A program made the position numbers and the translations under genes. Below the pieces are notes generated by a model. It worked only from the letters and a program-made list of their open reading frames with translations, was not told where the DNA came from and ran no database searches. From positions 7,172 through 71,171 of the forward strand of contig JAFGJU010000007.1 of the NCBI GenBank assembly GCA_016928935.1: 64,000 nt of DNA, written 5' to 3'. This document shows, piece by piece, positions 14,771-49,362 of the stretch; position 1 is the first letter of the stretch; every line of letters starts with the position of its first letter. The DNA is from Candidatus Eiseniibacteriota bacterium. Lineage in GTDB: Bacteria > Eisenbacteria > RBG-16-71-46 > JAFGJU01.

Positions 14771-14907
14771 ACCTTGCTAAGTTACTCATGTCCGCTCCGA
14801 CTCCTGCAACCTCACTCATGGGGAAGGCGGGGACCTACAAAACATGAGCCGAGATGTCTCTGGGCGAGAGTTCTGAGTGCAGCGACCTCTGCGACGAAGG
14901 AGGAAAG

Positions 14908-16014
14908 ATGGCTGGGAAGAAGACGACCGTCAGTGTCATTAAGGCCGACGTCGGCGGGTACGTAGGACACTCCGGCATGCACCCCGACGTGGTGGCAAAA
15001 GCGAACGAGATGCTGGAGGTGGCCGTTGAAAAGGGACTCGTGACCGACTTCCACGTGACCTGGTGCGGCGACGACCTTGAACTCATAATGACTCACGTCA
15101 GGGGCCTCGAAGCGGCCGACATACACAAGCTCGCATGGGACATCTTTCTGGCCGGCACAGAAGTCGCCAAGAAGCTCGGGCTGTACGGCGCGGGCCAGGA
15201 CATCCTCAAGGACGCCTTCAGTGGCACGGTCAAGGGACTCGGCCCGGGTGTGGCCGAGATGGAGTTTACCGAGAGAAGGAGCGACCCCATCATAGTGTTC
15301 ATGGCCGATAAGACCTCTCCTGGGGCCTGGAACCTTCCTCTCTACAAGATGTTCGCTGACCCGTTCAACACGGCGGGTCTGGTCATTGACCCCAGCATGC
15401 ACGAGGGCTTCAATTTCCTCGTGCTCGACGTAATCGACTCCAAGGAGATCATCCTCTCTGCGCCGGACGAGCTGTACGACATACTCGCCTTGATAGGCTC
15501 GCCCGCCAGGTACATGATAAAGTCCATTTACAGGCGCGCTGACGGGGAGATAGGAGCCAGCGCGTCAACCCAGAGACTCAGTCTCATAGCCGGCAAGTAC
15601 GTCGGCAAGGACGATCCCGTCCTCGTGGTCCGCGCTCAGAGCGGCCTGCCGGCCGTGGGCGAGATACTCGAGCCCTTCGCGTTCCCACACATCGTGGAGG
15701 GGTGGATGAGAGGCTCACACAACGGCCCTCTGATGCCGGTCGCCTTCCAGGACGCAACGCCGACCAGGTTCGACGGACCGCCAAGGGTCATAGCTGCCGG
15801 CTTCCAGGTGACGAACGGCCAGCTCATCGGGCCCGTGGACATGTTCGACGACCCCGGCTTTGACCTGGCGAGGAGCAAGGCCAACGAAATCGCTGACTAC
15901 ATGAGGCGGCACGGCCCGTTTGAGCCGCACAGGCTCCCGGCTGAGGCGATGGAGTACACCACCCTTCCGAGCCTCCTCGCGAAGCTGAAGGACAGGTTCA
16001 AGAACACCAAGTAG
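14908..16014 (+). CDS. fbp: bifunctional fructose-1,6-bisphosphate aldolase/phosphatase (class V FBPase, archaeal type)
   Basis: N-terminus MAGKKTTVSVIKADVGGYVGHSGMHPD and the length (~369 aa) match FBP aldolase/phosphatase. There is a strong SD, and the track start at 14854 is upstream and in frame. Confidence 0.85.
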   Translation: MAGKKTTVSVIKADVGGYVGHSGMHPDVVAKANEMLEVAVEKGLVTDFHVTWCGDDLELIMTHVRGLEAADIHKLAWDIFLAGTEVAKKLGLYGAGQDILKDAFSGTVKGLGPGVAEMEFTERRSDPIIVFMADKTSPGAWNLPLYKMFADPFNTAGLVIDPSMHEGFNFLVLDVIDSKEIILSAPDELYDILALIGSPARYMIKSIYRRADGEIGASASTQRLSLIAGKYVGKDDPVLVVRAQSGLPAVGEILEPFAFPHIVEGWMRGSHNGPLMPVAFQDATPTRFDGPPRVIAAGFQVTNGQLIGPVDMFDDPGFDLARSKANEIADYMRRHGPFEPHRLPAEAMEYTTLPSLLAKLKDRFKNTK

Positions 16015-26452: not shown

Positions 26453-28372
26453 CTACCGCACAAGGACCAGGTCCATTGTGCGCGCCAGCGGGTCCACCCT
26501 CGCGACTTTCACGCGCACGACCTGCCCCAGCGTGTAACGTCTGCCTTTTCTCCTTCCTACTAGAGAAAACCCGTCTTCGTCAAGATGGTAGAAGTCGTCC
26601 CGCAGGGACTCCCTGGTCACCATTCCCTCCACCCAGTGCCCCGAGACTTCCACGAAGAACCCCGAATTTACCACACCCACCACCAAACCTTCAAACACTT
26701 CTCCGAGGAAACGCTGCATGTAGCGAAGTGCCTTCATGTTGACCGCCTCGCGCTCAGCCTGGTCCGCCCTGATTTCCCTTTCAGTGCAGACCTCCGCAGC
26801 CACTGGCAGCTTTGCCTCCAGAGCTGCCGGAAGGCTCTTGGCCTTCCTGACTAGGCAGCGCTTGACCACCCTGTGGTTCAGGAGGTCAGCATATCTCCTT
26901 ATGGGAGAAGTGAAGTGACAGTATCCCTCCAAGCCAAGCCCGTAGTGGCCGATGTCGGTCACGTCGTAGCGGGCCTTCTCCATGGCGCGCACATACAGGT
27001 AGTTGAGCAGGCGCCTCCTGGCCGCTCCGTGCGACCCGCCGTCGACCGAAGGCCTGAGTCTCCTGAACTCCCCTCGGGGCATCTTCAGGTCCGCAGCGCC
27101 GACTGTCTTGGCCGCACGCAGGAACTCCTCTATCTTCTCCTTCTTGGCCCTGGGATGGACCCTGAAAATGAGCGGCACGCCCGCGGCGGCGGCGTGTCGG
27201 CCCACCTCAGCGTTGGCCAGAATCATCAGCTCCTCTATCAGCGAATGGGACGCCAGCTTGCCCTCGAAGAAGACTCTCTGGGGCACTCCCCTGTCGGTAA
27301 GCTCGACCCTGAGCTCCGGCACCTCCACCTCGACTGCGTTTCGCATGAGCCTCTGCTCGTTCAGTGCGGTGGCCAGAGCACTCAGCGTCTTGAGGTCCCG
27401 TTCGACTGCCCCGCCGGCTCCCCCCCTTCCGTCCAGCACGTCCTGGACCTCCTCGTACGTGAACCGCCTGGAGCTCGTAATCCGCGTCTCCATGAACCTG
27501 GTGCGCGTGACCCGCCCGTCGACGGTCAGCTCAATTAGGACGCTCATGCACAGCTTCGGCGTGCCCGGGACAAGGCTGCAAACACTGCTTGAGAGTCTCT
27601 CCGGAAGCATCGGGAACACGGCGTCGGGCAGGTAGACGCTGTTGCCGCGTTCCATGGCCTCCGTGTCCAGAGCGCCGCCCTCTCTAACCAAAGACGACAC
27701 ATCGGCTATGTGCACGCCCACCTCGAGCGACGCGCGTGACAACTGCTTGACTGACACCGCATCGTCGAAGTCGTGGGCGCGCGCCGGGTCAACGGTGAAG
27801 ATCGTATGGTCACGGAGCTCGGGCCGGGCGCCCTCCTCCTGAGAAACCTGCTCGGCCTCCTCCAGAGCCAGCTCGCCGAAGTCCGTCGGGATCGCCAGTT
27901 CGCACGCCACGATCTCGCTGTCCAGCGTGGCGTCCTCGGAGTCTCCCAGCACCCGCACTACCCTGCACCTGTTCAGCTCGCCTGGCTGCCTTGCCTCCGG
28001 CGACGCCAGGACCCTGTCTCCGTCGTCAAACCCCCCTCCCTTGCCCGGCGAGATGGGCATGACCGCCGGGAATCTCGGGTTGTCCGGCACCAACGCGTAT
28101 CCGGTCTTGACCCTGGCCACCCTGCCGGTGATTTCCCTGTACGGACGGTGCAATACGCGCGACACCCTGCCCTCCAGGAGCCCCGACCTGGCACTGCGCC
28201 TGACCTCCACCTCCACCTCGTCCCCATCCAGCGCACCGGCCAGGTGTCTGGACGGCACGTAGACGTCGTCGTGGCCTCCGTCCACGACCACAAACGCGAA
28301 TCGGCTGTCGGGTCTCTGCAATCGGCCCACGGTCTTCCAAGTCCTGGTGCGCGCTCTGTTCTTCCTGGGCAA
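26453..28372 (-). CDS. rnr: ribonuclease R (RNB family 3'-5' exoribonuclease with S1 domain)
   Basis: Cold-shock-like N-terminus (DSRFAFVVVDGGHDDVYVP), an RNB catalytic region and a C-terminal S1 domain (GLVVGVVNSGFFVEV). TTG start with GGGAGG SD. Confidence 0.9.
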   Translation of the reverse strand: MPRKNRARTRTWKTVGRLQRPDSRFAFVVVDGGHDDVYVPSRHLAGALDGDEVEVEVRRSARSGLLEGRVSRVLHRPYREITGRVARVKTGYALVPDNPRFPAVMPISPGKGGGFDDGDRVLASPEARQPGELNRCRVVRVLGDSEDATLDSEIVACELAIPTDFGELALEEAEQVSQEEGARPELRDHTIFTVDPARAHDFDDAVSVKQLSRASLEVGVHIADVSSLVREGGALDTEAMERGNSVYLPDAVFPMLPERLSSSVCSLVPGTPKLCMSVLIELTVDGRVTRTRFMETRITSSRRFTYEEVQDVLDGRGGAGGAVERDLKTLSALATALNEQRLMRNAVEVEVPELRVELTDRGVPQRVFFEGKLASHSLIEELMILANAEVGRHAAAAGVPLIFRVHPRAKKEKIEEFLRAAKTVGAADLKMPRGEFRRLRPSVDGGSHGAARRRLLNYLYVRAMEKARYDVTDIGHYGLGLEGYCHFTSPIRRYADLLNHRVVKRCLVRKAKSLPAALEAKLPVAAEVCTEREIRADQAEREAVNMKALRYMQRFLGEVFEGLVVGVVNSGFFVEVSGHWVEGMVTRESLRDDFYHLDEDGFSLVGRRKGRRYTLGQVVRVKVARVDPLARTMDLVLVR

Positions 28373-28641
28373 CTCCCCGCCTCCCGTCGGTGGCCCCGCG
28401 ACCTCAACAGAAACGCCGGAGCGGGCCCATTACGAAGGGCCCCACTCTCCGGCGCGATCACTCATCGGACTTTCATCAACAGATTCGGACTCGAGCCAAG
28501 ACGGCCACCGGGCTACCTCTGTCTCTTCTTGTGGCGGTCCCTGCGGAGTCTCTTCTTCCTCTTGTGCGTTGCGATCTTCTTTCTCTTGCGCTTTCTCCCA
28601 CAGCCCATTAACGCTACCTCCGTCTCCCGCAGCAGTACGCT

Positions 28642-28920
28642 CTATTGCTCCGACACGATGGATTTCAACGCGGATGCCGGCTTGAAGACCGGGACCAGTC
28701 TTGCCGGAACGATCAAGTCCGAACCTGTCCTGGGATTCTTGCCCATGGCCAGCGCCTTCTCGGCAACAGAGAAGGTGCCGAACCCCCGTAGCTTGACTTC
28801 AGTGCCTTCACTCAGAGCTCTGGAAATGGAACCGAAAATCTGCTCCACCACCTCGGCCGTCTGAGCCCGCGGCATCTTGGTCCTTCTCGACACATCCGCT
28901 ATTATGTCATGCTTGGTCAT
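28642..28920 (-). CDS. hup: HU/IHF family DNA-binding protein
   Basis: GFGTFSVAEKALAMGKNPRTGSDLIVPARLVPVFKPASALK. SD GGAGGAG. Confidence 0.9.
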   Translation of the reverse strand: MTKHDIIADVSRRTKMPRAQTAEVVEQIFGSISRALSEGTEVKLRGFGTFSVAEKALAMGKNPRTGSDLIVPARLVPVFKPASALKSIVSEQ

Positions 28921-28947
28921 CGCAGCTCCTCCGGCCGGTCTCGTCAG

Positions 28948-29172
28948 CTAATCGCATATGGAGCAGCTTCCGTCGCCGCACGTGCTGCATGACGACTTCG
29001 ACCCGGAAGTACCCGTCGTTCTTCCGGACGAACGCACGCCAAACACCGAAAACAGCCGCTCCGTTTTGCTGGCCCCGCACTCGGGACACCGGACACCGCG
29101 GTCCTTGCCCACCGGGCAGAGTTTCTCAAACTCCTTGCCGCACACGCTGCATTTGAATTCGTATATCGGCAT
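28948..29172 (-). CDS. FmdB-family zinc-ribbon putative regulatory protein
   Basis: MPIYEFKCSVCGKEFE...CPECG (two CxxC pairs) with a Ser/Gly-rich tail. ATG at 29172 with GGGGTG SD; the track ORF starts 11 codons upstream. Confidence 0.7.
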   Translation of the reverse strand: MPIYEFKCSVCGKEFEKLCPVGKDRGVRCPECGASKTERLFSVFGVRSSGRTTGTSGSKSSCSTCGDGSCSICD

Positions 29173-29214
29173 ATTCATCACCCCTGTTAAACGTATCACG
29201 CCCACACGACCCTG

Positions 29215-29484
29215 TCAACCGTCGGGTGTCACTTCGTCCGGTATGCCCACTATGGTGGCGTCGCTCGGGTTGAACCTTTCGGGAAGCGCGTTCGCCGCCT
29301 CCCTGCCCTTGACGAAGAACACAACCTGGCCCGGCGCCGCGCTCACCGTGTCCACGGCGACGATGGCCGGGCCCGTGACCTGGCCGCTCTCGTCCAGCGG
29401 CTCCACCACCAGCAACCGCTGCCCTTTCAAGGACGCCACTTTGGCGGTCGCCACCACTGTCCCTATGACTCTGCCCAGGTGCAA
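29215..29484 (-). CDS. BMC vertex protein (EutN/PduN/CcmL family, BMC-P)
   Basis: MHLGRVIGTVVATAKV...LLVVEPLDESG...AVDTVSAAPGQVVFFVKGREAA matches the PduN pattern. TTG start with AGGAGAG SD. Confidence 0.85.
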   Translation of the reverse strand: MHLGRVIGTVVATAKVASLKGQRLLVVEPLDESGQVTGPAIVAVDTVSAAPGQVVFFVKGREAANALPERFNPSDATIVGIPDEVTPDG

Positions 29485-29499
29485 ACCCCACTCTCCTGG

Positions 29500-30120
29500 C
29501 TACAGGACCTTCTGAAACAAAGATTCGTCGGGCCGAGGTATGACCACGCTTCTGACCAACAGGCCCTTCTTGCTGGCGTAGGCGCTTCCCGCACTGACCG
29601 AGGCCTCCACCTCGCTCACTGCACCCGTCATGGTTACGAACGCCTTTCCACCCAGACCCTTCGCCAGCCGTATCTCGATTATCTTCACCCGTGCGGCCTT
29701 CCCGGCCAGGTCGGCAGACATGATCGTGGAAGCGACCGAGAACGTTTCGATCACTCCCAGCGAGTCCAGCCGCTGCACCTCCGACGTCCCTGTCAGCGCC
29801 GGAAAGATGCCCGGGTGCGGGTTCGGCAGGAAGAGCGTATCGACCACGCTCTCAGCTCCTATCGCCTCGCCCCTCGCAACGCTCGCGTCCACGCTGGCCA
29901 CGTCACCCTTGACTATGACCACGTACTTGCCTGCGCACACGGGCGTGGCCTCGACCAGCTCGACCGGAGCCACCTTCAACATCTCGTCTGCCGCCTGAAC
30001 GCCTATGGCGACGCTGTTGAGCTCCACCAAGCCGAGGGCCGCGGACGCCGACACCCGACCCGCCAGCTCCGGTCCGCTTTCCGGACCCGCCTTGCCACGT
30101 CTGTCTCCGTCTCCGGTCAT
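29500..30120 (-). CDS. tandem BMC-domain shell protein (BMC-T, PduT-like)
   Basis: Two consecutive BMC domains (ALGLVELNSVAIGVQAADEMLK... and SLGVIETFSVASTIMSADLAGKAARV...). Domain 1 carries a Cys (PVCAGKY) at the position used for a pore Fe-S cluster in PduT. ATG at 30120; the track GTG is at 30132. Confidence 0.8.
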   Translation of the reverse strand: MTGDGDRRGKAGPESGPELAGRVSASAALGLVELNSVAIGVQAADEMLKVAPVELVEATPVCAGKYVVIVKGDVASVDASVARGEAIGAESVVDTLFLPNPHPGIFPALTGTSEVQRLDSLGVIETFSVASTIMSADLAGKAARVKIIEIRLAKGLGGKAFVTMTGAVSEVEASVSAGSAYASKKGLLVRSVVIPRPDESLFQKVL

Positions 30121-30217
30121 GTCACTTCTCACTCTCGTTCGCTCTTCCGCCTACAAGGCAGACTCAGTTCTCACGCTTCGGGCGCCAGTCCGGTCGGGCC
30201 AGACAGTGCCGCGCGAA

Positions 30218-31540
30218 TCAGCTCGTGACGTGCAGGTACTCCTCGGTTATCGACGTCACCTGTCCGTCTATGCTGGCGTGCGCGACCGCCCCGGGGCCCG
30301 GCCCCTCGGGCTCAGCCACCACGGTGCCGCGGGTCACGCTCGCGCCCTTGGACACACACGGCCTGAGCCTGCCCCACTTTTCCCGCAGCGGGATCTTGAC
30401 CACCGTCGCTTCCAGGGCGCTTCTCGGCACAGGGTGAGGTCCCGCGTACCCGGCCAGGCCGAACCTGGCCGTCAGCCGCTCCACCGGGACGCGCCTGCCG
30501 CTCCGCTCGGGCAGCGGCGCCGTGGCCGCACGCTTGACCGTCAGCCGCACGCCTTTCGCCACCAGCTCCTGCTTGACGGCCTGAAAGATCAGCACCGGAG
30601 AGAGCTCCATCGGGCACACGAAGTGCCCGCACAACCCGCACTCCGAACAGAGCATTGCGCTCGCCAACTCTTCTTCCGACCCCTCAATCCAGAGCGCCAC
30701 AGACCGCATGATCTTGTGCGGAAACAGCTGATGTCCCATGAGGTACCTCGGACACATGAGGGTGCAGTCCATGCACTGCATGCACGCCGCCATGGCTCGC
30801 CTGACGCTCACGGACAGTCTCACTCTCCGCCTTCTGACAAGCGGATTGTCCGGCGGAAGGACTATGACGGCGGTCGTGGTCTTCCTGACCGGCGTATCCG
30901 CGTCCTCGGTAATCTCTCCCATCATGGGGCCGCCCATGACTATCACGAACGGCCGCACCGATGCCCCACCGCATGCCTCTATCAACGCGTTTGCGCTGGT
31001 TCCTATCGGCACCAGCAGCGTGCGCGGCTTCCGCACCTCTCCTACGACCGTCACGTATCTCTCGGTGAAGGCTCTGCCCTCGTTCGAGAGTGCCACCCGC
31101 CACAGTGTCGTGACGTTGCTCACCAGAACCGAGACCTCCGGCGGAATGCCTCCCTGCGGCACGACTCGTCCCGTGACTTCCTCCACCAGCAGGTGCTCGT
31201 CACCAGCCGGATAGACGTCGTCGAGCAGGTGCAGCGTGAAATCCCCCCTCTTCCTGGAGAGCTCTTCAAGCACCGCCACCTGCTCCTTCCTCTTCCGTTT
31301 TAACGCCACGATCGCCCTGGTGGCGCCCACGGCGCCGCGCATCAGAGCCAGTCCCTCCAGCATCCGTTCCGGGTCCGCGGAGATGACCGCGCTGTCCGAT
31401 GCCACAAGCGGTTCGCACTCGGCGTAATTCGCCACCACCGTGTCCACGCAGGCCGCGGCCTTCACGTGAGTCGGAAAACCGGCTCCGCCGGCCCCCGCCA
31501 CCCCCGCCTGTTCTATCTTCCGTACGATGTCGTTGGCCAA
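30218..31540 (-). CDS. PduS-like RnfC-family Fe-S flavoprotein (NADH-dependent oxidoreductase)
   Basis: N-terminal GAGGAGFPTHVK NADH/FMN motif near the start, as in PduS. Two 4Fe-4S ferredoxin motifs (CMQCMDCTLMCP, CSECGLCGHFVCP). A C-terminal extension of about 100 aa. Confidence 0.8.
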   Translation of the reverse strand: MANDIVRKIEQAGVAGAGGAGFPTHVKAAACVDTVVANYAECEPLVASDSAVISADPERMLEGLALMRGAVGATRAIVALKRKRKEQVAVLEELSRKRGDFTLHLLDDVYPAGDEHLLVEEVTGRVVPQGGIPPEVSVLVSNVTTLWRVALSNEGRAFTERYVTVVGEVRKPRTLLVPIGTSANALIEACGGASVRPFVIVMGGPMMGEITEDADTPVRKTTTAVIVLPPDNPLVRRRRVRLSVSVRRAMAACMQCMDCTLMCPRYLMGHQLFPHKIMRSVALWIEGSEEELASAMLCSECGLCGHFVCPMELSPVLIFQAVKQELVAKGVRLTVKRAATAPLPERSGRRVPVERLTARFGLAGYAGPHPVPRSALEATVVKIPLREKWGRLRPCVSKGASVTRGTVVAEPEGPGPGAVAHASIDGQVTSITEEYLHVTS

Positions 31541-31615
31541 ACCGTCCCCGTCACGCCCTGCCCGCGCTGCGTCGCCCGCCCGGCCGCGCCCATGCGACGA
31601 CTCCCCATACGCGGG

Positions 31616-33130
31616 TCATACTATCCTGAAATAGTCCACAAGAACGCAGCGCCGCATCCTGGCGAAATGCCTGGCCGAGGTCAAACCCTCTCCGGTCGGG
31701 CTGGCTATCGTGAAGCTGGTGTAGCCCTCGCCGCCCAGGCCCAGTCCGGCGTAGGACGGCCCGTTCTTCACGAATATCGAGACGTCCATCTCCCTGGCCA
31801 TCCGGCTCAAGTGCTCGATGTTCTTGGAGTGCATGACCGCCGTGTGTCCCAGGTCCCGCTCGACCCTCTTCGCCAGGGTGATTGCCTCTGCCGCGTCCTT
31901 CACCCTGACCAGCGGTATTATCGGCATGAGCATTTCGGTCCAGACGAACGGATGGTCCCATTGAACTTCTATGAACCCAAGCCGGGACCCGTTGCTCACC
32001 CGCACGCCCGCCTCCGCCAAAATCAAGGGCAGGTCTCTGCCGACGAATTCTCTCCTCGCCGCTGACGGCCGCGCCGGTCCACGATTCTCCGCCAGGACGA
32101 GGCCGGCCAGCTTCGAGGCCAGCCCGCTGTCCAGCTCAACCCCGCCGGCCTTCACCAGAGCCGCCTTCAGCTCGGCCGCGACCGAATCCACGACTATGAT
32201 CTCCTTCTCCGAGATGCACACGATGCCGTTGTCCAACGACGCGCCGCCGAAGATGTCCCTACCCGCTTTGTCTATGTCGGCAGTGTCGTCAACCACTACG
32301 GGAGGGTTTCCCGGCCCTCCGGCTATGACCTTTTTTCCGCAGTCCATCGCCGCCCGCACCACGGCGGGCCCCCCCGTCACCACCAAAAGGTCCACCCCGC
32401 CGTGCTTCATCAACTCCTGAGAGAGCTGTATGGAAGGCTCCTCGAACGTCACGAGCAGGTTATTGATGCCCGACGCGGAGGCGATTGCGTCGTTCAGGAG
32501 CTGCACCGCCGCCAGCGTAGTCTGTTTGGCGGAAGGATGGGGACAGAACACCACCGCGTTTCCGGCGGCCACCATGCCTATTGCGTTGTTGATGACTGTC
32601 TCGGACGGATTGGTGGAAGGCGTTATGGCCGCTATGACCCCGTACGGAGCCCATTCCGTAAGTGTGAGTCCCCTGTCCCCCGTCCAGGACACCGGCACAA
32701 GGTCCTCCACTCCGGGCGTCTTCTCCGCCACGAGCAGGTTCTTCTTGACCTTGTCGTCCACCCTCCCCAGGCCGGTCTCCTTGACCGCCATACTGGAGAG
32801 CAAGAGTGCGTTTCTGGCCGAGGTCTCCCGCATGGCGGCGATCATCTTTTTCCTCGTCTCGAGGGCGGTGGCCGCCAGCGCTTCCCGGGCTCTGTTGGCC
32901 GCGCGCGCCGCTGACTCGGCGTCTCTGAACACCGAGTCCGAACTCGACCGCACCCCGGCCGCGGCGGGCGGTCTGAAATTCCCCTTGATGAGTGCGTCGT
33001 CCCTCCCGGCAGTCCGCCGAGCCACATCCCGGACCGCCGGCTCCGCGGCCGACGCCTCGGCCTTCAGTCTCCTCAGCACCGAATCCACCAGTGCCGAGAT
33101 TCTGTCTTCGTCCGACACCATGACGTCCAT
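31616..33130 (-). CDS. CoA-acylating aldehyde dehydrogenase (PduP/EutE-like) with an N-terminal encapsulation-peptide-like extension
   Basis: ALDH fold with a catalytic Cys region (IVCISEKE) and GGPGNPPVVVD. An extension of about 65 aa begins with the amphipathic DRISALVDSVLRRLKAE helix, followed by a linker. Confidence 0.9.
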   Translation of the reverse strand: MDVMVSDEDRISALVDSVLRRLKAEASAAEPAVRDVARRTAGRDDALIKGNFRPPAAAGVRSSSDSVFRDAESAARAANRAREALAATALETRKKMIAAMRETSARNALLLSSMAVKETGLGRVDDKVKKNLLVAEKTPGVEDLVPVSWTGDRGLTLTEWAPYGVIAAITPSTNPSETVINNAIGMVAAGNAVVFCPHPSAKQTTLAAVQLLNDAIASASGINNLLVTFEEPSIQLSQELMKHGGVDLLVVTGGPAVVRAAMDCGKKVIAGGPGNPPVVVDDTADIDKAGRDIFGGASLDNGIVCISEKEIIVVDSVAAELKAALVKAGGVELDSGLASKLAGLVLAENRGPARPSAARREFVGRDLPLILAEAGVRVSNGSRLGFIEVQWDHPFVWTEMLMPIIPLVRVKDAAEAITLAKRVERDLGHTAVMHSKNIEHLSRMAREMDVSIFVKNGPSYAGLGLGGEGYTSFTIASPTGEGLTSARHFARMRRCVLVDYFRIV

Positions 33131-33162
33131 CTCACGGTCAACTCAGACTCGCGCCGGGGCCG

Positions 33163-33462
33163 TCAGCCGGAAATGCCCTTCTGGTACGTCTCCTTACCGC
33201 CGATCTCCAGAGTGTCGACAATGCCCATTATCACGGAGTCGACGGGTTTGTCCCTGGTCACGTCCGTCAACCTCGCGGAGCTCCCGGACGAGTACAGCAC
33301 CACTTCCCCCACCCCGGCGCCGACCGCGTCCGCAGCCACCACGAACCCGGGCTTGAGCTTCATGTCGATATCCAGCTCTCTGACCACCAGAAGCTTGATT
33401 CCGCTGAGAGCTTCTTCCTTGCGCGTGGACACGACTGTGCCCACGACTCTGCCGAGAATCAC
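33163..33462 (-). CDS. BMC vertex protein (EutN/PduN/CcmL family, BMC-P)
   Basis: [17 protein letters not shown]...LLVVRELD...[25 protein letters not shown] start with GAGGAGGAG SD. Confidence 0.85.
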
Positions 33463-33474
33463 TTCTCCTCCTCA

Positions 33475-33768
33475 CTATCTCTTAGATTCGGAGGCTCTGC
33501 CTATGGGCAGCACGTCCTCAAGGCTGGAGTGAGGTCTCGGGATAATGTGCACCGACACCACCTCGCCGACCTTGCTCGCGGCGCTGCCGCCCGCGTCCGT
33601 CGCGGCCCTCACCGCGGCCACGTCACCTCTCACAATCGCGGTCACGTACCCGCCGCCGGTCCTCTCGTATCCTATGAGTCTGACCTTGGCCGCCTTGACC
33701 ATCGCGTCCGAAGCCTCGACCATCGCGACGAAGCCTCGCGTCTCGATCAAACCAAGAGCTTCTTCCAT
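33475..33768 (-). CDS. BMC hexamer shell protein (BMC-H, PduA/EutM-like)
   Basis: [29 protein letters not shown]...HIIPRPH is the canonical PF00936 pattern. The ATG at 33768 has better SD spacing than the track start at 33774. Confidence 0.9.
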
Positions 33769-33799
33769 CTCCATTCCTCCGTTCGGGACTGGCCGACGT

Positions 33800-34072
33800 C
33801 TACTTCAACAACGGCTCCTCAAGCTGAGAGTGAGGACTGGGTATCACGTGCGAAGACACCAGCTCCCCCGTCTTCTGCGCCGCCGCGGCTCCGGCCTGCA
33901 CAGCGGCCTTGACGGCGCCGACGTCCCCTCTCACCAGCGCGGTCACGTACCCGCCGCCGGTCCTCTCGTACTTCACTAAAGTCACTTTGGCGGCCTTGAC
34001 CATCGCGTCCGACGCCTCCACCATCCCCACGAACCCCTTGGTCTCAATCATCCCCAGAGCTTCTCCCTGCAA
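33800..34072 (-). CDS. BMC hexamer shell protein (BMC-H), paralog
   Basis: [30 protein letters not shown]...HVIPSPH. TTG at 34072 lies 9 nt after GGCAGGAG; the track GTG is at 34081. Its nucleotide sequence is near-identical to the adjacent paralog over long stretches. Confidence 0.9.
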
Positions 34073-34134
34073 TAGAATCACCTCCTGCCGAAGACGGCGT
34101 TAGTCTCTACCCCCAAAATTAGCATTGACCCACG

Positions 34135-34878
34135 TCACAGTATCTCGACCAACGTGCCGCAATGAACGTCCGCCGCGTTGGCGTCGTCCGTGTCCAGATG
34201 CATCTCCAACACGTAGGAAGAACTCACCCGCATAAGCACGTTCTCAAAGACGACTCCCTTCTGACCGTACACGCGCACCGACACCGTCTGTCCGTCCTCC
34301 ACACCCAGCCTCTCCGCGTCTTCGGGCGCGGCGTGCACGTGCCTCAACGCTCTTATGCCGCCCTCCTTCAGGCTGATCGCGCCCCTGGGCCCGACCAACA
34401 CGATCGGCGCGCTGCCCTCGAGTTTTCCCGAGTCTCTGACCGGAAGCTCCATGCCCAGCGCCACGCCGTCCGTCCTGGACAGCTCCGCCTGCGTGTACTC
34501 CCGGATGGGCCCGATGATACGCACGTCCTGAATTGAGTGCATCCGCGGCCCCACTACCGTGAGGGTCTCCTTCGCGGAGAACTCACCGGGCTGGCTCAGG
34601 TCTCGAAACCTCGTGAGCTCGCATCCCGCCCCGTACGTGGCGTCCAGCACTCCCCTCGTCAGGTGCACGTGCCTCGCGGATACCGCCACCGGCACCAGCC
34701 GCGACGCGACACCCTTCAGGCGCTCTCTCACTCTGGCCAGCACCGCTGCCGTGAGCTGGCTCAGGTCTGTTTCACCCAGGCTCGCGAGCCCCGCTTCCGC
34801 GTCGCCGGTCCATCCCACACCCTCGCAGTAACCGCATTCCTGGCAGGCCGTGCTTCTTCTTTCCACTCGGACCCCCAA
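34135..34878 (-). CDS. pduL: phosphate propanoyl/acetyltransferase PduL (PTAC) with an N-terminal extension
   Basis: Two PduL repeats with VSARHVHL and HVHAAPEDAERLG motifs and GQFAAEETV-like GEFSAKETLTVVGPRMHS. The start codon is uncertain (TTG at 34878, GTG at 34866). The extension contains CQECGYCEG and the amphipathic LTAAVLARVRERL helix. Confidence 0.85.
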   Translation of the reverse strand: MGVRVERRSTACQECGYCEGVGWTGDAEAGLASLGETDLSQLTAAVLARVRERLKGVASRLVPVAVSARHVHLTRGVLDATYGAGCELTRFRDLSQPGEFSAKETLTVVGPRMHSIQDVRIIGPIREYTQAELSRTDGVALGMELPVRDSGKLEGSAPIVLVGPRGAISLKEGGIRALRHVHAAPEDAERLGVEDGQTVSVRVYGQKGVVFENVLMRVSSSYVLEMHLDTDDANAADVHCGTLVEIL

Positions 34879-34916
34879 TGACCGTCGACCGCTGGCGCAA
34901 CTGATTAGGTGTGGGT

Positions 34917-34946
34917 AAATTAGCAGAGGGCCGCAATTACTGTCAA
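34917..34946 (-). promoter_or_regulatory. sigma70-like promoter candidate for the BMC operon (TTGACA-18-TAATTT on the minus strand)
   Basis: On the minus strand, TTGACA corresponds to plus 34941-34946 and TAATTT to plus 34917-34922. It lies about 40 nt upstream of the pduL start. Confidence 0.3.
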
Positions 34947-35582
34947 CTCTTAAAGAGACTCCTGGCTGCGAGCCCGGAGAGGCGCCGGGTGGCGCGGGTC
35001 GCGAGGTGAAGCGGGCTATCTCCTGCCGGTTGAGACGTGGAATCGGCCACGGCCAGAGGCCGCGGAGCCGCGTTCCGCGAGGGGTGCGAGGTCCCCGGTG
35101 GTTCCTCGTTCAAGAAGAATGGAAGCGCGGGGAGCCTCCCGGGCACAAGATCCCTCCCCTGCGACGACGGAGGAAATCGCAAGGCGAGTTTCTCGCTGAG
35201 GCAGAAGTCGGAAGGATTGTTGATGAGAAGAACAGGACCCTTGCCGCGTTTGTCTCCCCGGCCTCCTACTCGACTGTGTTGTTCGCACCACGCGGTGAAT
35301 ACAACTTCCGTGCCATCCGCTCGGGGCACGCTGCAAGCCGGCGTGGCTGTTCAGGCTCAACGAGTTGGCCGTGGGATAACACAGACTTCACAGGACTGCG
35401 CTCAATTCACAGCGTGAACCCCGTGCACGCCCGCCGGGGCCGTCCCGGATTTCCCCAAGTCAACACGCGACATGCGGCCGGGAACTGAGTTCACGCATAC
35501 GCAACCGGCGCGCCGCTCGGGGCTCCGGGGCCGAGCATATGGGCCCGGCCCCGAGCCAAACGGCCCCGGCCTGGAAGCAAGA

Positions 35583-35646
35583 GGCTCCGTCCGACGACTC
35601 TCTGGCGGTCACCCGGGTGAGGGGTGACCGCCTGTCGGACGGAGCC
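35583..35646 (-). terminator. long GC-rich nested hairpin downstream of the PDZ gene (terminator-like, no U-tract)
   Basis: Outer 13-bp inverted repeat ggctccgtccgac / gtcggacggagcc encloses an inner 11-bp stem ggcggtcaccc / gggtgaccgcc with a 7-nt loop. It lies about 35 nt after the stop of the 35681-36697 gene. Confidence 0.4.
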
Positions 35647-35680
35647 TAATTCCCAATCTCGCCTGACGGAGTGTCGGCGG

Positions 35681-36697
35681 CTATCGTGAGCCCAGTTCCT
35701 CGTCGAGCTCCTCCAAACGCTCCTTCAGCTTCTCCAGTTCCTCGGACAGGGCCTCCATGCGGCGCTCCAGATCGGCGTTACGCTTCATGTCCTCCAGCCC
35801 GGGCACGATGAAATCGTGCTTGAACTCCAGGCCCTTCTCGCCGATGCCCTCCATCCACGCGCGGAACGGACCCTTCTCCAGCGTGACCTTGAGGCTGAGC
35901 GGCTTGCCCTTCCTCACCAGCGAGACTTCCACCGTCTCGCCGTCCTCCTTGTCCCCCAGGGTATCGGTGAGCTCTCTCGTGTCAGCCACCTTCTCGCCGT
36001 CGATCGCCGTGATGACGTCGCCGGCCTTCATGCCGGCCTCTTCGGCCGCGCTCCCGTCCAGGACCTCAGTCACGAGCACGCCCTCCTCGACGCCGAAGTA
36101 CTCTCCCAGGCCTCCACTCACCTCCTGGACGTTGACTCCCAGATGCCCGCGGTCCAACTCGATCCTGAGCCGTCTGAGCGGCGGCATGGTCTCGGACCAC
36201 ATGGACCTCGATTTGGGAAACAGGATCGCCTTGTCCCCGGGTTTCTTCGCGGGCACCGCCCCCAGAGTCACGCCGATTCTGCGTTTCTTCCCGTCCCTCA
36301 CCACGGAGACGACCACCTCGCTGCCCGGCTTCTTCGCCCGTATCAACTCCACCAGGTCGTCAGGCGCCTCTACGTCCTTTCCGCTCACGGACTGTATGAG
36401 GTCCCCGAGGCGTATGCCGGCCTTGTCGGCCGGGCTTCCGTCCGTCACGCCCGCCACCACCACGCCCGTGAACTCGTCCTCGATGTCCAGTACCTCTCTA
36501 AGCTCTTCATCCAGGTCCTGCACGACCACTCCCAACCACGCATTCCCCGCCGTCGACTTCTCGGAGGAAGTGCTCGCGCACGGGAGCACTCCCGCCTGCG
36601 CGTCGCACTCGCCCGCCGACGCCGACGGTGAGAGAATGAGCGACCAGAGGACCAGCCACACCGGAAGACCCAGAAGAGCTTCATAGCGACGACTCAT
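35681..36697 (-). CDS. periplasmic tandem-PDZ domain protein (no protease domain) with a C-terminal coiled coil
   Basis: Signal peptide. Two PDZ domains (GVVVAGVTDGSPADKAGIRLGDLIQSVSG; GVLVTEVLDGSAAEEAGMKAGDVITAIDG). A charged coiled-coil tail. SD AAGGAGG. Confidence 0.7.
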   Translation of the reverse strand: MSRRYEALLGLPVWLVLWSLILSPSASAGECDAQAGVLPCASTSSEKSTAGNAWLGVVVQDLDEELREVLDIEDEFTGVVVAGVTDGSPADKAGIRLGDLIQSVSGKDVEAPDDLVELIRAKKPGSEVVVSVVRDGKKRRIGVTLGAVPAKKPGDKAILFPKSRSMWSETMPPLRRLRIELDRGHLGVNVQEVSGGLGEYFGVEEGVLVTEVLDGSAAEEAGMKAGDVITAIDGEKVADTRELTDTLGDKEDGETVEVSLVRKGKPLSLKVTLEKGPFRAWMEGIGEKGLEFKHDFIVPGLEDMKRNADLERRMEALSEELEKLKERLEELDEELGSR

Positions 36698-43344: not shown

Positions 43345-45063
43345 TCAGTAGGCCGGGAACCTGGCGCAAAGCTCCCTGACGCCCGCCCGCACCTTCGCGT
43401 TCTCTGACGGGTCCGAGCCCTTGCGCACGCACGCGTCTATCAACCGAGCCACCTCGCCCATTTCCTCCACCTTCATTCCTCTTCCGGTTGCCGACAGGGT
43501 TCCAACGCGGATGCCGCCGGCCTGGAACTTCGTGTCGAACGGCACTGCGCAGGCGTTCACCAGGAGTCCCGCGTCCTCCAGCCAGTTCCAGGCAGCCGAC
43601 GCGTCCACCCCCAGCCTGCCTATGTCGGCCACGAAAAGGTGCGTGTCCGTGCCGCCCGCCAGTATGCGGTGTCCCAACTTCTCCAACGCGGCTGCCAGCG
43701 CCCGGGCGTTCTCAATCACCGCCAACTGGAACTGTCTGAACTCAGGCCTGAGGGCCAGGCCGAAGCAGGCCGCTTTGGCGGCGATCGCGTGCATCAGGGG
43801 CCCTCCCTGCACGACGGGGAACACGGCGTCGTCCACGGCCGGGGCGTGTTCCTTCCTGGCCAGTATGAGCCCGCCTCGCGGGCCCAGCAGTGTCTTGTGC
43901 GTGGTGCTCGTCATCACGTCCGCGAACGGAACCGGGCTGGGGTGGATTCCCGCCGCGACGATTCCGGACAGGTGTGCCATGTCCACCATCAAGCGTGCTC
44001 CGCACGCGTCGGCTATCGACCGGAATCGGGCGAAGTCCACAAACCTGGAATAGGCGCTGCCCCCGGCAATGATGAGGTTCGGCCGTTCCTTCGTTGCCAA
44101 TCTCTCAACTTCCTCATAATCAATCAGTTCCGTCTCTCTCTTCACACCGTACATCAGAGACCCGTACAGTCTCCCCGCGAACGTCTCCGGGTCGCCGTGT
44201 GTGGGATGCCCGCCGTGGTCAAAGCGCATGCCCAGAATTTTCTGGCCCGGCTTGAGTAGAGCGAAGTACGCGGCCATGTTGGCCTGTGTCCCGGAGTAGG
44301 GCTGGACGTTGGCGTGGTCGGCTCCGAAAAGGGTCTTCGCCCTGTCCCTGGCCAGCGTTTCCACCTCGTCCACGACCCGGCAGCCGGGGTACAGCCTGGC
44401 GCCTGGATAGCCCTCGGCGTACTTGAGCGTGAACAACGAACCCGTCGTCTCGAATATGGCCGTGTCCGCGATGCCCTCAGACGCAACCAGGGTCAGAGTC
44501 TCGTTCTGCCGCGCTCTCTCCCGGTCCATCAGCTCCTTAAGGCGCGGGTCAACCTCCCGGGTCCTCTGGCCGTGATGCAACCAAAACCCGGGAGTCTCGT
44601 AAGCGGAGATCTTGCCTATTCTCCTCTCGTGGCGCCCCCCTTCGAACTCAGTCTGCAGCCACACTCTCACGAATTCCTCCGCTTCGACGGGCTTCGTGAA
44701 GGCCGCGGCCAGGACCAGCACGTTGGCGTTGTTGTGGACCCTCGACAGCCTGGCAGATTCCCTGTCGCGGCACAGGGCGGCCCGTACACCTCTCACCTTG
44801 TTGGCGGCAATCGACATGCCGATTCCCGTGTGGCAGATGAGAATGGCCCTGTCCGCCCGACCCTCCGCCACGGCTCTGGCCGCGGCAAGGCCGAAGTCAG
44901 TGTAATCCACGGACTCCGACGAGAAAGTCCCCATGTCGTCTACCTCGTGGCCAAGCGAGGTCACGTACTGCGCCACGTGTTGCTTCAGAGCGAAACCGGC
45001 GTGGTCGGAGCCCACGGCAATCTTGATGCGCTCACCAGCGCCACCGCTAGTCTGTCCTTTCAC
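43345..45063 (-). CDS. glyA: fused ribose-5-phosphate isomerase B / serine hydroxymethyltransferase (RpiB::GlyA)
   Basis: The N-terminal ~150 aa are RpiB/LacAB (IKIAVGSDHAGFALK...ICHTGIGMSIAANK). The remainder is SHMT (LVASEGIADTAIFETTGSLFTLKYAEGYPGARLYPGC; TSTTHKTLLGPRGG). GTG start with AAGGGAGGA SD. Confidence 0.9.
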   Translation of the reverse strand: MKGQTSGGAGERIKIAVGSDHAGFALKQHVAQYVTSLGHEVDDMGTFSSESVDYTDFGLAAARAVAEGRADRAILICHTGIGMSIAANKVRGVRAALCRDRESARLSRVHNNANVLVLAAAFTKPVEAEEFVRVWLQTEFEGGRHERRIGKISAYETPGFWLHHGQRTREVDPRLKELMDRERARQNETLTLVASEGIADTAIFETTGSLFTLKYAEGYPGARLYPGCRVVDEVETLARDRAKTLFGADHANVQPYSGTQANMAAYFALLKPGQKILGMRFDHGGHPTHGDPETFAGRLYGSLMYGVKRETELIDYEEVERLATKERPNLIIAGGSAYSRFVDFARFRSIADACGARLMVDMAHLSGIVAAGIHPSPVPFADVMTSTTHKTLLGPRGGLILARKEHAPAVDDAVFPVVQGGPLMHAIAAKAACFGLALRPEFRQFQLAVIENARALAAALEKLGHRILAGGTDTHLFVADIGRLGVDASAAWNWLEDAGLLVNACAVPFDTKFQAGGIRVGTLSATGRGMKVEEMGEVARLIDACVRKGSDPSENAKVRAGVRELCARFPAY

Positions 45064-48087: not shown

Positions 48088-49362
48088 CTACTCAACCACG
48101 GGCAGTGTCTCGGAACCGTCCGGGAAGACGTACGTCGTGAGGTCTCCGTCGGCCTTCGCCAGGACGTCGGCCACCGCTTCCTGGGCCGTGGCCGCAGGAA
48201 TGAGCCCCATCCGCCTGACCACGTCGTCTCCAAGGCTCGAAACCATGTACACCTTGAAACGCGCCGCCTTCTCGGACAAGGCCAGCGCCGTGTGGCCGTG
48301 GAACGTGTACTTGGACGCCAGCTTCCGCCTTATCCCGGATAGACCACCTTCCTCGAACCACCCCAGAAGCTCCTCAGAACCCATACCGTGCCTGTTCTCG
48401 GCCAGCAACACCATGGGTGCGCCGTCCTTCAGCACCGAGGCCATGTTGTCTATGGCCTTGTGAGACTGAACCATGGTCGAGTCCCTGGGATAGCCCCCGC
48501 AGCTCACGATCACGCAGTCCGCTTTGGCCGGCACTCTGACGGCCACGTCCCGCAGGAGCGCCCTGCACCCGGCCAGGTGCGCCTCCACGGCCTCGCCGGC
48601 GAACACGCCGAGTATGTTGCCTGCCGCGTCCGTCATGGTGTTGAGAAGGAACGCCGGAGGAATCATCCCCAGACTTTCCATCATTTCTTCGTGCACCGGG
48701 TTTCCGTCCAGGGAGGCGCTTCTGCACATGGGGTGAAAGCCCTCGGCCTCTCTCAGCGTGAGCCGGTGGTTGGCGCATATCGCTTCGAACGACGCGACTC
48801 CGGGCAGGACGGACTTCCGGCCGCCCCTGAAACCCGCGAAGTAATGCAGTCCGATCGAACCCGTCAGGATCACGAGGTCCGCCTCCGCCACCTTCCTGTT
48901 CAGGTAGATTTCGTTCCCCTTGCTCGACTTCCCCGCCAGGAAGTGACCGGCCTTGTCGCGGCAGTCGTGCTCCGTCACCGGGAATCTCTCGAGCACGCTT
49001 CGCGGCAGGAATTCGGGCAGGCCGTCCGGCCCCGCCAGTTCGTGCATCCCGTTGGCCACCAGTATCTGTACGGACTGGCTGCTCAGGCCGCAGTCAAGCA
49101 GGAATTCCGTCAGCACCGGGAGATAGCTCTTCACCCCCGCCACCCTTGTCCTGTCCGGCACTATCACCAGCACGCGCCTCGCTCCGCTCAACAGCTCGTC
49201 CAGCGGGCGGCCGACGGGCCTGGTCAGGGCGCCGCGCACGGCGCCGGCCGAGTCGACCAGGGCCGGCGAGTAGTCCGGCACGAAAACCCGCGCCTTCATG
49301 CGCTCAGGCAACCGCACTCTCACCTTTCCGCCGCCCAGCGCCAGCTCGAAGTCCTGGCTCAT
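48088..49362 (-). CDS. LarA-family (lactate racemase-like, DUF2088) protein
   Basis: LarA-like N-terminal domain with GLHYFAGFRGGRKSVLPG and conserved His residues. Its stop overlaps the gatB start by 4 nt. Confidence 0.75.
   Translation of the reverse strand: MSQDFELALGGGKVRVRLPERMKARVFVPDYSPALVDSAGAVRGALTRPVGRPLDELLSGARRVLVIVPDRTRVAGVKSYLPVLTEFLLDCGLSSQSVQILVANGMHELAGPDGLPEFLPRSVLERFPVTEHDCRDKAGHFLAGKSSKGNEIYLNRKVAEADLVILTGSIGLHYFAGFRGGRKSVLPGVASFEAICANHRLTLREAEGFHPMCRSASLDGNPVHEEMMESLGMIPPAFLLNTMTDAAGNILGVFAGEAVEAHLAGCRALLRDVAVRVPAKADCVIVSCGGYPRDSTMVQSHKAIDNMASVLKDGAPMVLLAENRHGMGSEELLGWFEEGGLSGIRRKLASKYTFHGHTALALSEKAARFKVYMVSSLGDDVVRRMGLIPAATAQEAVADVLAKADGDLTTYVFPDGSETLPVVE

Follow-up and report, generated by a model that had tools for sequence, protein, structure and literature searches.

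We analyzed a 64-kb stretch of DNA, referred to throughout as the window, from a high-GC contig (~62-65% GC) of a Candidatus Eisenbacteria metagenome-assembled genome (MAG). The window carries a bacterial microcompartment (BMC) locus in which the gene for MNdh, a PduS-family metabolosome NADH dehydrogenase, lies beside that for BMC-T(SE), a PduT-type tandem BMC shell protein, and it is with this pair that we are concerned here. Both genes are present at the coordinates given by an initial annotation of the sequence, on the minus strand, and they form part of a compact eight-gene minus-strand operon with the order PduL, BMC-H, BMC-H, BMC-P, aldehyde dehydrogenase (AldDH), MNdh, BMC-T, BMC-P:

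34135-34866, minus strand: PduL-type phosphotransacylase (PTAC), 243 aa (PF06130, 9.6e-67; passes NCBIfam NF011652)
33800-34081, minus strand: BMC-H shell protein 1 (PF00936, 8.3e-31)
33475-33774, minus strand: BMC-H shell protein 2 (PF00936, 4e-29)
33163-33462, minus strand: BMC-P vertex protein 1 (PF03319, 9.2e-28)
31616-33130, minus strand: CoA-acylating AldDH of the PduP/EutE type, 504 aa (PF00171; NCBIfam NF011927)
30218-31540, minus strand: MNdh, 440 aa (Pfam)
29500-30120, minus strand: BMC-T(SE), PduT-type tandem BMC shell protein, 206 aa (Pfam)
29215-29484, minus strand: BMC-P vertex protein 2, the final gene of the BMC cluster (PF03319, 5.2e-27)

A gene for a PDZ-domain protein lies on the upstream side of the operon and housekeeping genes (FmdB zinc ribbon, HU and RNase R) lie on the downstream side, and synteny of the operon together with its flanking genes extends to related Eisenbacteria genomes and to metagenome contigs. 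Within this BMC locus the AldDH gene is directly upstream of the MNdh gene, and the BMC-T gene follows MNdh on the same strand after 97 nt. When 80 loci from species-representative genomes encoding an MNdh relative were compared, a tandem BMC-T with a pore cysteine was found directly downstream of the MNdh relative, on the same strand, in 65 of them. The other 15 were mostly cut by contig ends or came from lineages in which no similar BMC-T was detected in the fetched flanks.

MNdh was 100% identical to the NCBI entry 'SLBB domain-containing protein' of a Candidatus Eisenbacteria MAG, and Pfam assigned to it Complex1_51K (PF01512, 1.7e-39), SLBB (PF10531, 7e-9) and Fer4_17 (PF13534, 2.4e-14) domains. 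An RnfC_N match at the C-terminus was weak (residues 380-435; 23.6 bits, just below the 25.6-bit cut-off), and the AlphaFold2 (AF2) model has a confident beta domain at residues 380-439; the permuted RnfC_N-like barrel is placed at the C-terminal end of the protein (~30221-30403, minus strand). The initial annotation had described this gene as an RnfC/PduS-type neighbor of BMC-T with an NADH/FMN site, a description that is borne out: the FMN/NADH loop GAGGAGFPTHVK (residues 16-27; 31460-31495, minus strand) and the motifs NYAECEP, YPAGDE and VSNVTT are intact and align to RnfC, and GAGGAGFPTHVK, N-x-AECEP, YPAGDE and V-x-NV-x-T show no or almost no variation across the 120 closest MNdh homologs (conservation was counted in the 120 closest homologs for MNdh and likewise for BMC-T). 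It had furthermore reported two CxxCxxCxxxCP motifs. The first has this form (CMQCMDCTLMCP; residues 253-264; 30749-30784, minus strand), whereas the second is actually CX2CX2CX4CP (CSECGLCGHFVCP; residues 298-310; 30611-30649, minus strand), which is the norm in the MNdh family according to the 120-homolog alignment. All eight Fe-S cysteines (C253, C256, C259, C263, C298, C301, C304 and C309) are invariant in 120/120 of the closest homologs.

The best PDB sequence matches of MNdh were RnfC subunits (5e-44; 9eri_C, 7zc6_C, 8ahx_C), with which it shares the FMN/NADH site and the two [4Fe-4S] motifs. Its AF2 model, with a predicted local distance difference test score (pLDDT) of 93.8, likewise found RnfC as the best fold (template-modeling (TM) score ~0.62-0.64), followed by NuoF-type proteins. 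We nevertheless rejected MNdh as a true RnfC: its barrel domain is C-terminal, whereas the barrel-sandwich domain of RnfC is N-terminal; it scored 222.7 bits against NCBIfam rnfC (TIGR01945), under the cut-off of 245.95; and no rnf genes, rnfABDEG included, were found in Pfam scans of 57 open reading frames (ORFs), almost the full complement of predicted genes in the window. Moreover, the partner of MNdh is a shell protein and not a membrane complex.

The BMC-T ORF spans 29500-30132 (minus strand), and the ATG at 30120 is its likely start, giving the 206-aa protein that is also found in the NCBI and Logan gene calls. The protein consists of two tandem PF00936 BMC domains (Pfam, E=5.6e-43) and is of the single-layer BMC-T(S) type. 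The pore cysteine, Cys62, lies in domain 1 within 'PVCAGKY' (codon 29935-29937; pore loop 29926-29946, minus strand). The initial annotation had assigned this residue to the position of the PduT cluster ligand, and gap-free HMMER alignments agreed, with Cys62 falling on Cys38 of Citrobacter freundii PduT ('TICPGKF'; 3pac, 3e-43) and on the engineered serine of the Salmonella enterica PduT C38S mutant (3n79). Cys62 thus corresponds to the [4Fe-4S] ligand Cys38. On alignment, then, the pore cysteine was not misplaced and the FMN/NADH residues of MNdh were not missing, the two observations that the initial annotation had named as telling against its proposal.

The structural comparison pointed the same way. 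In the AF2 monomer model (pLDDT 90.6) Cys62 sits in the hairpin turn joining strands 54-62 and 65-73. Foldseek superposed this model on the PduT homolog of Desulfitobacterium hafniense (3nwg; gap-free sequence match, 3.4e-53) with a TM score of 0.95, a root-mean-square deviation of 1.0 Å and 50% identity, and on PduT 3pac with a TM score of 0.86, the superpositions covering 177-179 columns. By analogy with these trimeric crystal structures, to which it shows 40-50% identity and TM scores of 0.86-0.95, BMC-T would assemble into a trimer with three cysteines at the pore that bind a [4Fe-4S] cluster.

The residue that follows the pore cysteine is more variable than the cysteine itself. All 120 of the closest BMC-T homologs have the cysteine, in the contexts CPGK (95), CSGK (18) and CAGK (7), and among BMC-Ts adjoining MNdh in the 80 species loci the motif is CPGK in 46, CSGK in 17 and CAGK in 2. 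CP(G/S)K has been stated to be universally conserved next to MNdh (Sutter et al., 2024; PMC11626177), and the window BMC-T, which has CAGK, departs from that literal motif. In the clade to which the window belongs the motif is C(A/S)GK, the proline having been lost throughout; loci with a proline-less or variant motif include L004-L006, L028, L031 and L063-L079 of our comparison. CSGK is common beside MNdh in loci of Bacteroidota, Ignavibacteria and Acidobacteriota, and the proline is therefore dispensable for co-occurrence of the two proteins. As judged from these sequences, the working pore motif is C-[PSA]-G-K, in which cysteine, glycine and lysine are retained.

A separate feature of the window BMC-T is its N-terminus, of which ~25 aa form a disordered extension in the AF2 model (30055-30120, minus strand). 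Such extensions measure ~10-55 aa across the BMC-Ts of the window's clade and are charged, Gly/Pro-rich and disordered; they are missing from PduT and most homologs, and their sequence is kept among close relatives only.

The remaining enzymes of the operon bear on the chemistry in which MNdh and BMC-T would take part. AldDH scored 622.7 bits on NCBIfam NF011927 (cut-off 403), carries its catalytic Cys305 in IVCISEKE, and begins with an amphipathic helix (DRISALVDSVLRRLKAE) that on sequence inspection resembles an encapsulation peptide; it would be the source of lumenal NADH. The initial annotation had remarked on the lack of an alcohol dehydrogenase (ADH), and within the window this holds, as the Pfam scans of the 57 ORFs returned no member of the ADH families; in orthologous loci none was found within ~10 kb on either side. 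The same scans found neither a B12-dependent enzyme for diols or ethanolamine nor a reactivase or adenosyltransferase, and syntenic loci also lacked B12-related enzymes. A BMC signature enzyme was found neither in the window nor beside the operon in orthologous loci.

These observations, namely family membership, intact cofactor motifs, an aligned pore cysteine, conserved adjacency, an operon context with an acylating AldDH and PduL, and a window in which ADH and B12 genes were not found, lead us to consider it probable (roughly 0.7) that the two genes constitute the MNdh/BMC-T(SE) module of a small aldehyde-oxidizing metabolosome, which exports electrons to recycle NAD+ without an ADH. Recycling of NAD(H) by electron export in place of an ADH was what the initial annotation had proposed, and both homology and the experimental work on a homolog speak for it. 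The idea is already published: Sutter et al. (2024; PNAS, PMC11626177) put forward the same electron-export model, renaming PduS homologs MNdh and naming the partner BMC-T(SE), and it has been independently re-derived here in a catalogued locus type. In their survey MNdh occurred in 2,172 of >7,000 BMC loci, with a BMC-T(SE) gene adjacent in 97% of those; MNdh was always accompanied by AldDH, and 361 loci had the pair but no ADH (PMC11626177). The Clostridium botulinum MNdh/BMC-T(SE) pair was purified as a stable complex with FMN and Fe-S that oxidized NADH with a kcat of ~20 per second, electron paramagnetic resonance (EPR) showed NADH-dependent reduction of the BMC-T cluster, and voltammetry resolved stepped potentials (PMC11626177). 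Binding of PduS to PduT was known from earlier work (PMC2982820). By analogy with the C. botulinum homolog, for which both activities were demonstrated, the window MNdh would act as an NADH:acceptor oxidoreductase and transfer electrons to the shell cluster.

In the mechanism that we propose, cluster binding, docking, the direction of electron flow and the physiological role are carried over from work on homologs. A lumenal aldehyde, produced by an enzyme that is not encoded in the window, would be oxidized by the CoA-acylating AldDH with reduction of NAD+ to NADH, and PduL would turn the resulting acyl-CoA into acyl-phosphate and so recycle CoA. MNdh would dock to the BMC-T trimer from the lumenal side, oxidize the NADH at its FMN and pass the electrons through its two [4Fe-4S] clusters to the [4Fe-4S] cluster held by three Cys62 residues in the trimer pore. 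The electrons would then pass to a cytosolic acceptor, for instance ferredoxin, flavodoxin or O2. Lumenal NAD+ would in this way be restored without an ADH, and no substrate would be lost as alcohol.

Several points weigh against this account. An ADH may be encoded beyond the 64-kb window, flux through AldDH is an assumption, as no enzyme producing the aldehyde was found in the window, and no electron acceptor was identified. Furthermore, Salmonella pduS and pduT knockouts show mild phenotypes only (discussed in PMC11626177), and the window pore motif is CAGK and not the published CP(G/S)K, a loss of proline that could affect cluster binding or potential.

The alternative that survives these considerations best is that the module is real but auxiliary, with NAD+ recycled mainly by an ADH encoded elsewhere or by leakage of NAD(H) through larger pores, and MNdh/BMC-T providing flexibility. 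Knockouts of either system, ADH or MNdh/BMC-T, are mild in Salmonella, which fits such a role, as do the 1,725 catalogued loci that hold both an ADH and MNdh/BMC-T (PMC11626177). Only 64 kb of the genome is visible here, and since the signature enzyme is also absent from the locus across the clade, some components of the system evidently lie elsewhere in the genome. However, the lack of an ADH extends from the window to the ~10 kb flanks of orthologous loci, the eight-gene operon with MNdh/BMC-T is strictly conserved across the clade, and the 361 catalogued loci without an ADH are in the same situation (PMC11626177), and we regard an auxiliary role as unlikely.

Considerably less likely still is that the pore does not serve as an outward conduit at all. 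Electrons might flow inward, the pore cluster might act as a redox sensor or gate, or the cysteine might bind no cluster after the Pro-to-Ala change and leave BMC-T as a structural tile. The sequence does not fix the direction of electron flow, the window's clade is without the proline of the published motif, and some BMC-T(S) proteins in the catalog of Sutter et al. (2021) keep the cysteine after loss of PduS. Against non-conduit roles, the cysteine is invariant and MNdh is always adjacent in the window's clade, and the frequency of CSGK beside MNdh in other phyla indicates that the proline is not essential for co-occurrence. The direction is addressed by AldDH, the sole redox enzyme of the operon, which makes NADH and so argues for export, and by the EPR and voltammetry results on the C. 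botulinum homolog, which support transfer from FMN to the shell (PMC11626177). Least likely of all is the classical PduS role, in which a corrin reductase acting on cob(III)alamin/cob(II)alamin would help to reactivate a lumenal B12 enzyme, with the BMC-T cluster supplying or removing electrons: the window MNdh belongs to the family whose Salmonella/Citrobacter members were first characterized as corrin reductases that bind PduT (PMC2982820; discussed in PMC11626177), but with no B12-dependent enzyme found by the Pfam scans of nearly all genes predicted in the window such a role has no partner here, and PduS proteins are widespread in BMC types without B12 and oxidize NADH without cobalamin (Sutter et al., 2024; PMC11626177).

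Comparison with known systems places the electron-export module of the window among its relatives. The C. botulinum MNdh-BMC-T(SE) pair shares with it both protein families, the adjacent arrangement, the four MNdh domains including the C-terminal permuted RnfC_N, the pore cysteine in domain 1 of a single-layer tandem BMC-T, the proposed function and the argument from a missing ADH. It differs in coming from another phylum and from a glycyl-radical (GRM1) locus, whereas that of the window is MIC7-like; in addition, its pore motif is CPGK and not CAGK, and the ~25-aa disordered N-terminal extension is a feature of the window BMC-T. The S. enterica and C. freundii PduT proteins (3n79, 3pac) are 37-40% identical to the window BMC-T (TM ~0.86), which scored 106 bits against the NCBIfam eut_PduT equivalog model, under its cut-off of 250. 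Pdu loci contain a B12-dependent diol dehydratase, the PduQ ADH and many more genes, whereas the window locus is without a B12 enzyme or ADH.

An orthologous counterpart is the 'Ca. Latescibacteria DG_63' locus (L002/L003, AMJ46_09200-09215), in which gene order and flanks are as in the window and the proteins are 62-89% identical (BMC-T 75%, MNdh 64%). Both loci contain PduL, MNdh, two BMC-P genes only, and a cysteine-bearing BMC-T beside MNdh. The DG_63 genes carry the MIC7 label in the catalog trees (Sutter et al., 2021), and by this orthology the locus type of the window is MIC7 of that catalog. The catalog describes MIC7 as having a BMC-P triplet, a BMC-T(dp) in a satellite locus and an AldDH with an N-terminal encapsulation peptide (Sutter et al., 2021). 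According to its text, Ts_drab BMC-T proteins lack the pore cysteine and do not adjoin PduS (Sutter et al., 2021), yet the tree file gives the Ts_drab label to the DG_63 BMC-T, which has PVCAGKY and adjoins the PduS homolog AMJ46_09210 in a locus that also contains a PduL gene. This mismatch may reflect a mix-up in the catalog text or heterogeneity of the color class.

An MNdh-AMC-T(s) module is also found in the 'archaeal microcompartments' of Hodarchaeales (PMC12747264; L008 and L082), where MNdh is 40% identical to that of the window. The gene order there (PTAC, H, P, AldDH, MNdh, then T after one intervening BMC-H gene) is similar, but these loci are of the SPU type, with DeoC, RpiB, acetate kinase and a citrate synthase-PTAC fusion, and their pore motif is CPGK. 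We observed that the Candidatus Hodarchaeota (Asgard) locus L008 (5288-16227) encodes an SPU-like BMC and has a gene for a ubiquitin-conjugating E2 on the same contig, and that both Asgard loci match those described in this 2025 preprint (PMC12747264).

A hint to the aldehyde source came from a sister Eisenbacteria clade (L007, L032, L070 and L080), in which the gene order is the same and MNdh is 44-56% identical. The window locus carries two BMC-P genes only. In L032 (12201-13269) and L070 (12180-13287), where the contig reaches further, the operon is followed by a third BMC-P gene and a class II aldolase gene (PF00596, 1.6e-46). This aldolase, which the window's locus lacks, is a candidate signature enzyme, and it suggests that the aldehyde is the product of an aldolase. 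One example, as in the PVM and MUF types, would be lactaldehyde derived from substrates resembling fuculose phosphate or rhamnulose phosphate. A homolog search with the sister-clade aldolase returned no protein of the complete bin56 chromosome among the best 120, and a satellite aldolase in the window's clade is hypothetical.

Other genes of the window were considered as possible parts of the BMC system. One 572-aa ORF at 43345-45063 (minus strand) encodes a fusion of RpiB (residues 15-152) and serine hydroxymethyltransferase (SHMT; residues 170-542). Although BMCs of the SPU type have RpiB as a signature enzyme, no link of the RpiB-SHMT fusion to the BMC was seen, and we rejected it as an SPU-like signature, as it lies in a Sua5/LMW-phosphatase/RpiB/GlyA housekeeping neighborhood and has no obvious encapsulation peptide. 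The zinc-ribbon (FmdB) gene after the last BMC-P found no support as an external electron acceptor, as it is of the generic FmdB family and absent from the sister-clade locus. Two further genes of the window encode a class V (archaeal-type) fructose-1,6-bisphosphate aldolase/phosphatase (14854-16014, plus strand; PF01950, 1e-183) and a LarA-like lactate racemase family protein (48088-49362, minus strand).

At the upstream end of the operon, PduL proteins of the window's clade share the N-terminus M-ERR-x3-C-x-E-C-G-Y-C (CxxCxxC), which in the window reads M-ERRSTA-CQECGYC (34825-34866, minus strand). The start is a conserved GTG/TTG behind a GGAGG-like site, from which the protein measures 243 aa, and the CxxCxxC is followed by a variable linker, an encapsulation-peptide-like helix and the PTAC domain. 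The CxxCxxC is kept through synonymous codon changes while the linker varies (L001/L005, L002/L003, L004 and L006); neither the sister Eisenbacteria clade nor the remaining PduL genes of the fetched loci have it. From its sequence, the motif could be a metal or Fe-S site.

The region between the PDZ gene and PduL contains three further features:

35315-35301, minus strand: sigma54-type promoter-like site TGGCACGGAAGTTGT, near-consensus and conserved in aligned orthologous loci
35120-35267, minus strand: candidate structured RNA (leader or small RNA), ~150 nt, conserved at the nucleotide level
34917-34946, minus strand: sigma70-like TTGACA-18 nt-TAATTT, a consensus match ~50 nt upstream of the PduL start, conserved in a 5-locus alignment

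The sigma54 pattern has just 3 matches in the whole window, both strands included, and the RNA element begins ~35-40 nt beyond the site listed here. The element was found in 5 genome loci and its core in 13 metagenome contigs, and every metagenome contig that shows flanking genes has the order PDZ, element, PduL. It is highly conserved across loci whose proteins share just 60-80% identity, with an invariant 31-nt core, and it has 1-nt indels and is therefore not coding. RNAalifold predicted five helices, of which one long-range helix has two compensatory pairs (UA/CG and CG/UA); the others are invariant and therefore uninformative either way. The single-sequence fold was not clearly better than those of shuffled sequences (z = -1.35). 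No Rfam match was obtained at E<=1 over 28000-36500, and a covariance model of the element found no further copy, either in the window or among 60 additional loci that are mostly BMC loci. We regard the element as a candidate leader RNA or small RNA, linked to the BMC operon by position.

For electron export as such, the locus is one more example, from an uncultured phylum, of a mechanism already proposed and biochemically tested, and its value is confirmatory. The operon is core-only, lacks an ADH and is strictly conserved in its clade, so that MNdh/BMC-T(SE) should be indispensable to it, and it therefore offers a clean natural test of the 2024 model. The PduL motif and the upstream RNA, made here as side observations, are newer than the electron-export module, and it is the C(A/S)GK motif, the PduL CxxCxxC and the RNA behind the sigma54-type promoter that could yield novelty. 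Taken jointly, these parts suggest a more far-reaching proposition, which we consider improbable as a whole: that a minimal, core-only metabolosome with added clade-specific PduL, RNA and pore-motif parts relies on MNdh/BMC-T(SE) alone to recycle NAD+. If this were true, the Cys3 site of PduL ahead of the encapsulation peptide could couple CoA recycling to redox state, the sigma54-driven ~150-nt structured RNA, without an Rfam match, could control the operon, and the C(A/S)GK motif, which has no proline, could serve to tune the shell cluster's potential. The clade-specific features might also help to identify the substrate of the MIC7 compartment.

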